32,000 nucleotides of DNA from Mycolicibacterium smegmatis. Lineage in GTDB: Bacteria; Actinomycetota; Actinomycetes; Mycobacteriales; Mycobacteriaceae. The translations under genes were made by a program, and so were the position numbers. Location of the stretch: the NCBI RefSeq assembly GCF_001457595.1, contig NZ_LN831039.1, forward strand, positions 5,790,001-5,822,000, written 5' to 3'. A model generated the notes under the pieces. The model did not search any database, was not told the origin of the DNA, and was given only the letters and a program-made list of their open reading frames with translations. Shown here piece after piece: positions 14,326 to 19,735 of the stretch. How positions within the stretch are numbered: the first letter of the stretch is position 1; each line of letters opens with the position of its first letter.

Positions 14326-14744
14326 TCAGTCGGTGTCACCGTAGTACCGTGTCGAGAAAATCTGAGACTTCAACGCTTCGACGTCAGCTCTGGATGGCAG
14401 CCCCGCATTTTTAGCCAGATGGTGGCCCATCTCTGAGTCGTTGAAGCCAGTGCGTCGTGCAACCTCGACTGCAAACTCGTGCACCTCTGACCGCGCATGT
14501 CGCCAGGCGAGGTCAGCGACTACCTAGATCTCGTCTTCGAGCTGACGTTCTGACATCCGAACTACACCGGGCGACAGCGCGATGCTTCTGATCCGACCGT
14601 CGGGAAACACCGTCACCGTCACCGTTCCGGGTGGATTCGTCACCGATGACCATAGCGGCAGATGCTCGTCGCCAGACACCGAGGGGTTTGGCGGCTGGAC
14701 GATGCCACCGTCATCTCTGCTGTCGCCGATCTCGCCGGATTTGG
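14326..14744 (-). pseudogene. 3' two-thirds of a disrupted espD/espH-like gene, truncated at the IS1096 boundary and containing an in-frame amber codon at 14524-14526
   Basis: My own minus-strand translation reads ...GEIGDSRDDGGIVQPPNPSVSGDEHLPLWSSVTNPPGTVTVTVFPDGRIRSIALSPGVVRMSERQLEDEI*VVADLAWRHARSEVHEFAVEVARRTGFNDSEMGHHLAKNAGLPSRADVEALKSQIFSTRYYGDTD(stop at 14326-14328). It is absent from the ORF track because it has no start codon and is split by TAG. Confidence 0.75.
14737..14744. repeat. IS1096 target-site duplication half GGATTTGG (partner is 19728-19735, inverted)
   Basis: These 8 bp abut the tnpA-end IR of copy 1. The reverse complement CCAAATCC abuts the tnpR-end IR of copy 2. Confidence 0.85.
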
Positions 14745-14854
14745 GGCTCTTCGCAGTTGAGGGTGTAGAGGTCGTCGGCGCGTCGGTGCCGGGATAGGGG
14801 TCGAGGTCTTCCGATGATGGAGGTTCCTACGCCATCCATCTGAAAGACCTCGAC

Positions 14855-16177
14855 GTGCCTGACGCTACCGGTCGGGCGGGCTTCGCCTGCGCTGACCTGA
14901 CGACTTTCTGCCGCCTCGACGAGCTCGGGTTGGAGGTGACCGGCCAACGCCTCGACCCTGATCGGGCCGTGCTGGCGTGCCGGGTCGCCGATGAGGATCG
15001 GTGGTGCCGCCGCTGCGGCGAAGAAGGCGTTGTACGTGACAGCGTGACTCGCACGTTGGCTCATGAACCGTTCGGGTGGCGACCCACGGCTTTGCTGGTC
15101 ACGATCCGCCGTTACCGTTGCGCCGGCTGCGCTCATGTGTGGCGCCAGGATGCCAGCGCCGCAGCCGAACCGCGGGCCAGGCTGTCCCGGCGTGCTCTGC
15201 GGTGGGCGCTGGAAGCCCTTGTCTGCCAACACCTGTCGGTGGCCCGGGTCGCCGAGGCGCTTGCGGTGTCGTGGAACACTGCCAACAACGCCGTGCTCGC
15301 CGAAGGTCAGCGGGTGCTCATCGCCGATCCGGCCCGGTTCGATGGCGTCGCGGTGATCGGCGTCGATGAGCACGTGTGGCGGCACACTCGCCGCGGCGAC
15401 AAGTACGTCACCGTCATCATCGATCTCACGCCCGTGCGTGACGGGACCGGCCCCGCACGGCTGCTCGACATGGTGGAGGGCCGCTCCAAGAAGGCGTTCG
15501 CCGACTGGCTGGCACAGCGGCCACAGGAGTGGCGTGATCGTGTGGACGTTGTTGCCATGGACGGGTTCTCCGGGTTCAAGACCGCCGCCACCGAAGAACT
15601 GCCTGACGCGGCCACGGTGATGGACCCCTTCCACGTGGTCCGCCTGGCCGGCAACGCCCTCGACGAGTGCCGACGCCGCGTGCAGCTGGCCACCTGCGGG
15701 CACCGCGGCCGCAGCACCGACCCGCTCTACCGATCGCGACGCACCCTGCACACCGGGGCCGACCTGCTCACCGACCGCCAGAAAGCCCGACTGGCCGCAC
15801 TGTTCGCCGCCAACGCGCACGCCGAGATCGAGGCCACCTGGGCGATGTATCAACGCACCGTGGCCGCCTACCGCGAACCAGACCGCACCAAGGGCCGCAC
15901 CATGATGGCTGCACTGATCACCACGCTGAGCACAGGCGTCCCCACGTCGCTGACCGAGCTGATCACCCTCGGGCGGACACTGAAGAAGCGTGCCGCCGAC
16001 GTCCTGGCCTACTTCGACCGCCCCGGCACCTCCAACGGGCCGACCGAAGCGATCAACGGCCGCCTCGAACACCTGCGCGGATCCGCCCTGGGCTTCCGCA
16101 ACCTCACCAACTACATCGCCCGGTCCCTGCTCGAGACCGGAGGCTTCCGAACCCAGCTCCGTCAACCTCGGCGGTGA
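14855..16177 (+). CDS. tnpA: ISL3-family transposase (IS1096 TnpA)
   Basis: 440 aa. N-terminal zinc-finger-like CRRCG...CAGC. DDE_Tnp_ISL3-type core (VIGVDEH...VAMDGFSGFK...NGPTEAINGRLEHLRGSALGFRN). Confidence 0.93.
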   Translation: MPDATGRAGFACADLTTFCRLDELGLEVTGQRLDPDRAVLACRVADEDRWCRRCGEEGVVRDSVTRTLAHEPFGWRPTALLVTIRRYRCAGCAHVWRQDASAAAEPRARLSRRALRWALEALVCQHLSVARVAEALAVSWNTANNAVLAEGQRVLIADPARFDGVAVIGVDEHVWRHTRRGDKYVTVIIDLTPVRDGTGPARLLDMVEGRSKKAFADWLAQRPQEWRDRVDVVAMDGFSGFKTAATEELPDAATVMDPFHVVRLAGNALDECRRRVQLATCGHRGRSTDPLYRSRRTLHTGADLLTDRQKARLAALFAANAHAEIEATWAMYQRTVAAYREPDRTKGRTMMAALITTLSTGVPTSLTELITLGRTLKKRAADVLAYFDRPGTSNGPTEAINGRLEHLRGSALGFRNLTNYIARSLLETGGFRTQLRQPRR

Positions 16178-16184
16178 AGAATCC

Positions 16185-18106: not shown

Positions 18107-18139
18107 TCGCGGTATAGAGCGGATTGGGCATCCGGGCTG

Positions 18140-18244
18140 ATGAGTAATGGAACGTCGCGTTCGTGGGACGACGACGAGTTCGCCGACGCGGATTCCCAGT
18201 CCGCGGAGATCGGATCGGCATTCGACCTCTATACAAAGAATGAT
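18140..18244 (+). pseudogene. 5' end (35 codons) of the disrupted espD/espH-like gene, cut by the ISL3 insertion
   Basis: ATG at 18140, MSNGTSRSWDDDEFADADSQSAEIGSAFDLYTKND, ending exactly at the IS boundary. Acidic N-terminus like EspD. Too short to appear in the ORF track. Confidence 0.65.
18237..18244. repeat. Target-site duplication AGAATGAT of the nested ISL3 element (left copy)
   Basis: Identical 8-mer at 19704-19711, immediately outside the other IR. Confidence 0.9.
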
Positions 18245-19703
18245 GGCTCTTCGCAGTTAGCAGTGGCGTTGGTGCCGGCTGGGTGTGACTCGTCGTGATC
18301 GGCGAGTGCAGGCCCACCGTACTCGGCGGCGTTGGTTCTCAGGATTGCGGAAGCCGAAGGCGATGCGCCCGACGTGTTTGACGATGCGGTTGTAGCCTTC
18401 GGTGCGGGCGTTGGACAGGCCGGTCTGCAGGGCGGCGATGATGGGGGCCTGCCAGGTCTCGATGGTGCGGGCCAGTCGGATCACTTCGGGCACTGTGCAG
18501 GCCGCGCAGAAACGGTAGAACCGGTCCAGGGCGGTCGTGATCTCGTAGCGCAACCCGCCGCGGTCGGCGCAGGAAAGCAGGTCGCGCAGCAGTTCTTTGG
18601 CGATCCAGGCCGCGGCGATGTCCTGGTTGGGGTCGGCGGAGAGCAGCTTGGCGAACAACGTGGCGCGTTGGTCTGCGGTGAGCCGCTCGGAGCCGCGCAG
18701 CAGGCGGCGGCGGTTGATCCACTCGACATCGGCCTTGCGGCCGCGCCGGCCCCGTTGGGTCCAGGTGACCCGGCGGCGCACCGCATCAACCATGTCGTTG
18801 GCTTTCTTGACCAGGTGGAACCGGTCGGCGATCAGGATCGCGTGCGGCAGTGCTTCGCGAGCCACCCGGGCATAGGCCGGGGACAAATCGATGGCTACGT
18901 GGGTGATTGCGGCCCGCCAGTCAGGGTCCTGGCCAGCGAGCCAGTCGATCACTGCCGCCGAGGTGCGGCCATTGACCTGGCCAAGGAGGCCTTGATCGCC
19001 GGTGATGTCGACCAGTCCGGTGTCCCAGCGATCCACCCATACCCGCCGCCCGAGTACCGGGTTGTGTTCCCATTTGGCCTTACCGCGTCGGGTCTCGTCG
19101 ATGCCGAGCACCGCCACCGGCGCCAGCTCGCCGGCCAGGGCGTCCTCGGCGGTGGCGATGACTTCGTCGTGCACGGTGTGCCAGCCGCAGCGGTACTGCC
19201 CGGCCACCGCGGCCACCGAACGGTCCTCGTCGAGCACCGCAGTGGCCATCGTCGCCTTGGCCCGCGGTGTTACCCGCGCCCGCGCCGGGATTCCGGGCAC
19301 CGACTCGGTGAACACCTTGCGCGTACAGACCGTGCTGGGGCACAACCACTTTCGCTTACGCCAGCGCAGTATCGGGCGGTCCGAACCCACCACAACGTCG
19401 CGGGGTCCGGTCTGTACCCAGCCTTTCGACCTGGTGGAGCGTTCCCCGCATTCGGGGCAGATCCCGACCCACTGGGGGGCGGTGAGCACCTGCACCAACC
19501 GGGTGCCGTCCTCGAGGCGCTGCACCGATTCGACGACCACACCGTCGAGATCGAGCAGCAGTGAACTACCGTCAACCATGGTTCCGCGTTCCTTGTCCTG
19601 GATGCCTGAAGAACACCCAGCTCACAGGGGCGCGGACCCCTAATCAATCACCGACACGACACAACGTCGGACAACACCAGACCCCTATCAACTGCGAAGA
19701 GCC
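18245..19703 (-). mobile_element. ISL3-family insertion sequence, 1459 bp, single ORF, distinct from IS1096
   Basis: IRs GGCTCTTCGCAGTTAGCAG... (18245-) and GGCTCTTCGCAGTTGATAGG... (reverse complement of -19703). Flanked by the perfect 8-bp direct repeat AGAATGAT. The terminal 14 bp are identical to the IS1096 tnpA-end IR. Confidence 0.9.
18257..19579 (-). CDS. ISL3-family transposase
   Basis: 440 aa. zf-ISL3-like CPECG...CPSTVC. DDE core (VLGIDETRR...VAIDLSPAY...SNARTEGYNRIVKHVGRIAFGFRN). Clearly diverged from the IS1096 TnpA sequence. Confidence 0.92.
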   Translation of the reverse strand: MVDGSSLLLDLDGVVVESVQRLEDGTRLVQVLTAPQWVGICPECGERSTRSKGWVQTGPRDVVVGSDRPILRWRKRKWLCPSTVCTRKVFTESVPGIPARARVTPRAKATMATAVLDEDRSVAAVAGQYRCGWHTVHDEVIATAEDALAGELAPVAVLGIDETRRGKAKWEHNPVLGRRVWVDRWDTGLVDITGDQGLLGQVNGRTSAAVIDWLAGQDPDWRAAITHVAIDLSPAYARVAREALPHAILIADRFHLVKKANDMVDAVRRRVTWTQRGRRGRKADVEWINRRRLLRGSERLTADQRATLFAKLLSADPNQDIAAAWIAKELLRDLLSCADRGGLRYEITTALDRFYRFCAACTVPEVIRLARTIETWQAPIIAALQTGLSNARTEGYNRIVKHVGRIAFGFRNPENQRRRVRWACTRRSRRVTPSRHQRHC

Positions 19704-19735
19704 AGAATGATCTGTGCGGTTCGCACACCAAATCC
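19704..19735 (+). pseudogene. 32-bp island between two IS elements: TSD copy AGAATGAT plus 8 codons (LCGSHTKS) of the espD-like gene
   Basis: CTGTGCGGTTCGCACACCAAATCC continues the 18140 reading frame once the IS and one TSD copy are removed. Its last 8 bp, CCAAATCC, are the inverted partner of 14737-14744. Confidence 0.65.

Follow-up and report, generated by a model that had tools for sequence, protein, structure and literature searches.

A likely strain-specific EspD/EspH-family pseudogene in Mycolicibacterium smegmatis, disrupted by insertion sequences, a nonsense mutation and an inversion

The three fragments and the rebuilt espD-like gene

In this study, we describe an espD-like gene that lies in three pieces within a window of 32,000 nucleotides (nt) from Mycolicibacterium smegmatis (assembly GCF_001457595.1, contig NZ_LN831039.1, positions 5,790,001 to 5,822,000 of the forward strand). 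The window is the whole stretch of DNA that was analyzed, and all positions below are counted from its first letter. The pieces are found among three insertion sequences (ISs), one copy of ISMsm4 and two copies of IS1096, with their terminal inverted repeats (IRs) and target site duplications (TSDs), while two neighboring genes, espA-like and espC-like, are intact. The fragments and the elements that divide them are organized as follows.

18140-18244, plus strand: espD-like fragment i, codons 1-35 (MSNGT...YTKND), with its 3' end at the IR of ISMsm4
18245-19703, minus strand: ISMsm4 (ISL3 family), 1459 bp, with its transposase gene at 18257-19579 (minus strand)
19712-19735, plus strand: espD-like fragment ii, codons 36-43 (LCGSHTKS), of which the final 8 nt, CCAAATCC, are one IS1096 TSD copy
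14736 down to 14326, minus strand: espD-like fragment iii, codons 44-179 plus the TGA stop (136 codons and stop)
14524-14526, minus strand: amber codon 114 (TAG), derived from CAG (Gln), the codon present in eight of eight IS-free orthologs (L001-L008)
14745-17001, plus strand: IS1096 copy A, 2257 bp, with tnpA at 14855-16177 (plus) and tnpR (PRiA4_ORF3 family) at 16185-16937 (minus)
19736-21992, minus strand: IS1096 copy B, 2257 bp, with tnpR at 19800-20552 (plus) and tnpA at 20560-21882 (minus)
17002-17009, no strand assigned: TSD of the second IS1096 site, AGTTTGCT, with its partner AGCAAACT at 21993-22000, 17 nt upstream of the espA-like ATG

The transposase of the small element is the exact protein annotated as 'ISL3-like element ISMsm4 family transposase' in M. 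smegmatis, and it matches the ISL3 transposase family of Pfam as well as the NCBIfam model NF033550 (E 5e-90). The element ends in the terminal IRs GGCTCTTCGCA and is flanked by an 8-bp direct TSD, AGAATGAT, at 18237-18244 and 19704-19711; the IS-free orthologs contain a single AGAATGAT and align here without gaps. In the case of the large element, TnpA is identical to the mc2155 protein 'IS1096, tnpA protein' (A0QNX9), its proteins match the Pfam families DDE_Tnp_ISL3 (E 2e-57) and PRiA4_ORF3 (E 1e-51), the IRs measure 26 nt with 24 matching, and the published primers IS1096-F and IS1096-R (PMC4197770) match both copies. Copies A and B are mutually inverted and show no mismatch in 2257 nt, which indicates that the events may be recent or that the copies may have been homogenised. 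Their flanks match crosswise: GGATTTGG (14737-14744), which adjoins fragment iii as the second TSD copy, is the reverse complement of CCAAATCC (19728-19735), and AGTTTGCT is the reverse complement of AGCAAACT. Once the inversion is undone, the 8-bp IS1096 TSDs are recovered, and each insertion site then has one flank at the tnpA-end IR and the other at the tnpR-end IR, as expected of a complete IS1096 insertion there.

To rebuild the gene, each IS was removed together with one TSD copy and the inversion was undone, giving the locus order reverse complement of 21993-32000, 17010-18244, 19712-19735, and reverse complement of 1-14736. The three fragments then join in frame to 540 nt, that is 179 codons and a stop, and the only internal stop is the TAG at 14524-14526 in fragment iii. 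The rebuilt product is 98% identical over 100% of its length to an intact protein of 179 amino acids (P0001) that is encoded at the eight IS-free loci or contigs L001-L008. At the nucleotide level, 537 of the 540 positions agree with all eight (three differences, no gaps), and fragment i is identical to nt 1-105 of the intact orthologs. Beyond the gene, the rebuilt locus and L001 are colinear without a break through 20,561 alignment columns and share 99.3% identity. Set against these IS-free relatives, the two junctions, the pair of IS1096 sites and the inversion are all confirmed. That the fragments belong to different genes is ruled out, as intact orthologs span both junctions. Within the species-representative genome collection, the best match was only 47-50% identical and M. 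smegmatis was absent from the matches, the region possibly being masked there. Proteins encoded in the window do have exact matches among M. smegmatis entries.

An earlier note on this DNA had placed the three fragments, removed the IS1096 and ISL3 elements each with one TSD copy, undone the inversion and rejoined the pieces in frame to 179 codons. Re-reading of the sequence shows its fragment coordinates to be correct throughout, the operation restores a real gene that is intact in relatives at the same length, and both element identifications hold, the smaller one being ISMsm4. Its argument that in-phase junctions are unlikely by chance is borne out by the gapless alignment to eight IS-free loci and the colinearity with L001. 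The comparison with IS-free loci and the protein search that it proposed as checks gave the results above, and its espD-like family call agrees with the named homologs, the YbaB-like fold and the espA-C-D-type synteny discussed below.

Based on these data, we consider it highly probable (about 90%) that the locus is a strain-specific EspD/EspH-family pseudogene of M. smegmatis which has been broken by IS insertions, a nonsense codon and an inversion. We thus read the three unannotated gene pieces, together with ISMsm4 and the pair of IS1096 copies, as a single event history, from which the exact ancestral order is recovered. The case is one of ordinary IS-driven pseudogenisation by well-known IS processes, and its biological value is modest. 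The gene itself is already annotated in mc2155 (177 amino acids, ABK73085.1/AFP41998.1, MSMEI_5558, with the UniProt name 'EspH'), where the same gene occupies the corresponding locus, contains no IS and shares more than 98% identity.

An EspD/EspH-family protein with a YbaB-like fold

The homologs found for the rebuilt protein carry the names EspD, EspH or YbaB/EbfC and share 34-49% identity with it; among them are a 'secretion protein EspD' of M. aquaticum (E 7e-20) and an 'ESX-1 secretion-associated protein EspH' of M. vanbaalenii (E 1e-16). The homolog alignment contains 30 invariant columns, including the core VTNPPGTVTVT..DGR..LS. In the AlphaFold2 model residues 1-66 are disordered, followed by a domain (residues 70-176, predicted local distance difference test above 90) of three strands and then helices. 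The top Foldseek matches in the PDB are the YbaB structures 1j8b, 1pug and 3f42, and HP0035 and Rv3716c are also among the top matches; for this set the probability reaches 1.00 and the TM-score (target) 0.65, at an E-value of only 0.02. Such a YbaB-like fold agrees with the published Phyre2 prediction for EspH (PMC6107294).

At the sequence level, the Pfam model YbaB_DNA_bd remains below its cut-off of 25.5 bits for the rebuilt protein (21.7 bits, E 2e-4) and for P0001 (19.8 bits), and likewise for the named homologs P0026, P0016 and P0003 (18.8-20.6 bits). Pfam holds no dedicated EspD/EspH family and gave only these sub-threshold YbaB hits, plus DUF2694 on one EspH; NCBIfam gave no matches for the Esp-like proteins, and a sequence-profile comparison with solved structures returned nothing significant. 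The gene is a divergent EspD/EspH-family member with a YbaB-like fold.

The nearest known counterparts are EspD (Rv3614c) of the M. tuberculosis espACD operon and EspH (Rv3867/MMAR_5442) of the ESX-1 locus. With the EspD system the window shares espA-, espC- and espD-type genes in the same abutting order, a protein of about 180 amino acids in which the YbaB-like domain comes after a disordered, acidic N-terminus, and the family core VTNPPGTVTVT..DGR..LSP..DEI. In contrast, the window gene is only about 34-49% identical to named EspD/EspH proteins, the EspA-like partner is short (245 amino acids), the cluster ends with a DUF2510 gene, and the espD-like gene is a pseudogene. EspH belongs to the same family, and the highest core-domain identities (40-49%) are those to EspH-type genes of fast-growing mycobacteria; yet EspH follows espG1 in the order espE-espF-espG1-espH, whereas the window gene follows the espC-like gene directly and lies far from any ecc genes. 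'espD-like' is thus a fair label by synteny.

EspH is reported to bind EspE and to be required for the secretion of EspE and EspF (PMC6107294), and EspD stabilises EspA and EspC according to work cited in that paper. By analogy, the members of the family are putative dedicated chaperones for EspA/EspC-type ESX-1 substrates, and the role expected of the intact espD-like protein would be to stabilise the EspA/EspC-type pair encoded with it, following the same account of EspD (PMC6107294).

Order of the lesions and origin of the inversion

The premature stop Q114* falls within a long helix (residues 106-138) of the AlphaFold2 model and cuts off residues 114-179, by which, according to this model, about 60% of the folded domain (residues ~70-176) would be lost. 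The two IS sites in the gene, ISMsm4 after codon 35 and IS1096 after codon 43, are both located in the disordered N-terminal region, with 24 nt separating ISMsm4 from the IS1096 breakpoint. In addition, the 2.7 kb enclosed by the IS1096 copies run in the opposite direction to IS-free relatives, so that the last 136 codons are placed 5.4 kb away on the other strand. With residues 114-179 lost to the stop, the gene product would be non-functional.

In two respects the lesions differ from what the earlier note had assumed. A TTG (Leu) codon, which it suggested as the source of the amber codon, is ruled out, as every IS-free ortholog with a sense codon 114 reads CAG; Leu occurs at this position only in distant homologs. 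It also counted the nonsense mutation as an independent lesion; the allele is not private to this strain, the same TAG being found in the IS-free loci L090-L093 (metagenome and read-archive haplotypes) on different flanking haplotypes. Its count of two IS hits and a nonsense mutation is right in that all of them are present, and too low in that the lesions exceed three when the inversion, the second IS1096 site and two missense changes private to the window, Y37C (TGC, 19715-19717) and E42K (AAA, 19730-19732), are included.

We propose that the CAG-to-TAG nonsense allele is probably older than the IS insertions, and that the ISs entered a gene which had lost its function before, because TAG segregates in IS-free relatives, one of which (L093) has the flanking haplotype nearest to that of the window (5 of 3250 nt differ, three of them inside the gene). 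Since it is present in both TSD copies, E42K would likewise be older than the IS1096 insertion in the gene. As the sequence shows, ISMsm4 inserted after codon 35 with the TSD AGAATGAT and IS1096 after codon 43 with the TSD CCAAATCC, and a second IS1096 copy is present 17 nt upstream of the espA-like ATG with the TSD AGCAAACT. In the proposed history, the inversion would have arisen via homologous recombination between these two independently inserted, identical, inverted IS1096 copies.

Several points weigh against parts of this reading. The TAG stands on two haplotypes, with V84 in the window and M84 in L090-L093, and M84 is combined with Q114 in L094 and L095, so that the sites nt 250 (V84M) and nt 340 (Q114*) show all four combinations. 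Such a four-gamete pattern points to recombination among M. smegmatis strains or to recurrent mutation, so that the order with the nonsense mutation first is not proven. Furthermore, the orientation of the segment between the identical 2257-bp inverted repeats is taken entirely from the assembly, as the junctions read identically whichever way the segment lies. Finally, the putative chaperone role is carried over from homologs in M. tuberculosis and M. marinum, to which the identity is only about 35-49%.

There is some room for an amber codon that arose late and independently in this lineage, as the earlier note assumed, with the same mutation hitting this CAG codon again in other strains: the four combinations seen for nt 250 and 340 require recurrent mutation or recombination, and CAG to TAG takes a single C-to-T transition. 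We consider such a late origin rather unlikely, since the IS-free TAG carriers L092 and L093 have the flanking haplotype of the window and the TAG-M84 segment occurs on two different downstream haplotypes, a mosaic that is expected of recombination. M. smegmatis is known for mosaic recombination via distributive conjugal transfer. An amber codon older than the IS insertions is thus retained as the probable order.

For the inversion itself, homologous recombination between the IS1096 copies is the preferred route and accounts for everything observed. The end product is formally identical to that of a one-step origin, in which a single resident IS1096 would have given rise to a second, inverted copy and the inversion simultaneously by intramolecular replicative transposition. 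The left flanks of the two copies are each other's reverse complement, as are the right flanks, the copies show 0 differences in 2257 nt, the same signature has been documented for IS26 (PMC4471558), and IS1096 carries a second gene historically named tnpR. This origin is nevertheless unlikely: our literature search gave no evidence of replicative transposition by IS1096 or other ISL3 elements, while recombination between identical inverted repeats of 2.26 kb is a sufficient and common route. The sequence alone does not separate the two routes. The likeness to the IS-bounded inversions of the IS26 type (PMC4471558) lies in the identical inverted IS copies and in the 8-bp flanks that match crosswise and not within a copy. 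Here, however, the element is IS1096, an ISL3-family member in a mycobacterium; no more than 2.7 kb are inverted, and one of the breakpoints falls within a gene into which ISMsm4 has inserted as well, only 24 nt away. The literature search yielded nothing specific to the locus on MSMEG_5707-5710, on IS1096 inversions, on ISMsm4, or on the transposition mechanism of IS1096.

All four IS-flank junctions being identical in both orientations, the inversion could also be a choice made during assembly or one of the two states in a flip-flop population. In reality there may then be two simple IS1096 insertions with normal direct TSDs. Related draft assemblies do break at the IS copies, and the espA-like fragment stands alone on a contig of 1497 bp (P0054), a length made up of the 1243-bp unique segment and about 2 x 127 nt. 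The window proteins are also found in a chromosome-scale assembly of 6.98 Mb, which normally requires reads across repeats of 2.3 kb, and there is no direct sign of misassembly, which makes this explanation improbable. A true inversion, produced by recombination between the two IS1096 copies, thus remains our preferred model.

The espA-C-D-type island and its variation across strains

In the ancestral locus, the espD-like gene was part of a low-GC cluster of four genes, in the order espA-like, espC-like, espD-like and DUF2510, with a short-chain dehydrogenase (SDR) gene as its upstream neighbor. The other members and the native upstream region are located in the window as follows.

17027-17764, plus strand: espA-like gene, 245 amino acids, intact; Pfam EspA_EspE, E 1.9e-16
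17783-18106, plus strand: espC-like gene, 107 amino acids, intact; Pfam T7SS_ESX_EspC, E 1.1e-19
13662-14312, minus strand: DUF2510 gene, 216 amino acids, ancestrally directly downstream of the espD-like gene and likewise downstream in L017
22111-22797, minus strand: SDR gene, ancestral upstream neighbor of the espA-like gene
21993-22127, minus strand: native upstream intergenic region of the espA-like operon, 135 nt (127 nt plus the 8-bp TSD), colinear with L001

A WxG motif (WEG) can be read directly in the espA-like protein, which has an exact match in M. smegmatis named 'EspA/EspE family T7SS effector', and a YxxxD motif (YDDVD) in the espC-like protein, which is also matched exactly in M. 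smegmatis. Between the espC-like stop (18106) and the espD-like ATG (18140) there is no espG, giving a compact A-C-D order. The same order is present in L017 (Mycobacterium sp. B14F4), L047 (M. shimoidei), L052 and a few others, while in 28 of 80 related loci a gap of 700-1600 nt separates the EspC/F-like match from the query match, which fits the ESX-1 order espE-espF-espG-espH. In L017 (4493-7022), an orthologous compact cluster is found, where the 117-amino-acid gene is accompanied by espA-like (44% identity), espC-like (50%), espD-like (34%) and DUF2510 (39%) genes, so that the four-gene module exists outside M. smegmatis; the 117-amino-acid gene is there located on the other side of the module. 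The DUF2510 gene is called at either 216 or 204 amino acids in relatives, mc2155 having the 204-amino-acid form.

M. smegmatis thus has a compact espA/espC/espD-like island, where the literature usually treats espACD as absent; a bidirectional-best-hit analysis predicted no espACD ortholog in this species (PMC6917791). IS1096 now separates the espA-like operon from its native 135-nt upstream region, as the second site lies 17 nt before the ATG. The espA-like and espC-like genes, although intact, would hence be without the native upstream region and without a cognate chaperone, and the window strain may be regarded as a natural espD-like null with intact espA-like and espC-like genes. A promoter scan upstream of the espA-like gene found no sigma-70 consensus. 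By eye, a TANNNT-like TAGGAT can be read in the rebuilt intergenic region, a short way before the IS1096 site.

The GC content of the island is 56%, compared to 69-70% in the flanks, and over 6-11 related loci not a single nucleotide varies in the espA-like and espC-like genes, compared to 29 substitution sites in the SDR gene. Given its low GC content and the invariance of these two genes, the island looks like one that was recently acquired or recently swept. The variation of each gene over the strains and haplotypes retrieved is given below; these samples lack independence, and part of the changes arose after the gene had been inactivated.

SDR: 21 synonymous, 8 non-synonymous; one 12-nt in-frame indel
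espA-like: 0 synonymous, 0 non-synonymous; invariant
espC-like: 0 synonymous, 0 non-synonymous; invariant
espD-like: 0 synonymous, 5 non-synonymous (the nonsense site counted); three indel events and three IS sites
DUF2510: 3 synonymous, 1 non-synonymous; no other change
Next gene (117 amino acids): 4 synonymous, 2 non-synonymous; no other change

When the 0:5 ratio (synonymous to non-synonymous) of the espD-like gene is set against the pooled 28:11 of its neighbors, a one-sided Fisher test gives p 0.004 on non-independent samples, and the excess of protein-changing variants is a lead, not a result.

Other strains carry lesions of their own in the same gene. In mc2155, an in-frame deletion of 6 nt in a GTCACC repeat (window 14610-14615, minus strand, in the region of codons 81-86) has removed two residues from the invariant TVTVT strand of the conserved core (GTVTVT), and the Pfam YbaB score of this ortholog (P0114) is down to 12 bits from 19.8; mc2155 may therefore carry a compromised espD-like allele. 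In GCA_024179085.1 (JAMZOD010000014.1, L089 1-214), an ISMsm4 end is found at about nt 174 of the espD-like gene, an independent third IS site, and the Prokaryotic Genome Annotation Pipeline annotates only a C-terminal remnant of 105 amino acids. Two mc2155-type contigs, L096 and L097 (SRR29127151 and SRR29649397), have different 1-bp deletions, at nt 180 (in a C-run) and nt 170, each leaving a product of 74 amino acids; as both come from read-archive assemblies only, these could be real laboratory mutations or assembly errors.

One tentative interpretation is that the espD-like gene has been repeatedly altered or inactivated across M. smegmatis lineages, with selection favoring the loss or modification of the chaperone in a recently spread, low-GC, orphan espACD-like island. 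The three IS sites, Q114* on several haplotypes, the two-residue deletion of mc2155 and the two possible frameshifts are consistent with such recurrence, as is the fact that all observed espD-like substitutions are amino acid-changing next to invariant espA-like and espC-like genes; we rather doubt it at present. If it were true, there may be consequences for ESX-1-dependent phenotypes such as conjugal transfer, and the pattern would reflect selection on an ESX-1 accessory chaperone in a non-pathogen.

Some minor observations concern the insertion sequences. The four ISL3-type target sites, AGAATGAT, CCAAATCC, AGCAAACT and GCCAAACC (the last from L089 215-222), all have an A-rich center, and CAAA or CCAAA occurs in three of the four. 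The clustering of ISs in the low-GC island could stem from a preference for A/T-rich targets. The exact IS1096 'TnpR' of 250 amino acids recurs in Mycobacterium phage LouisV14 under the annotation 'resolvase', which implies an IS1096 copy inside that phage genome record.

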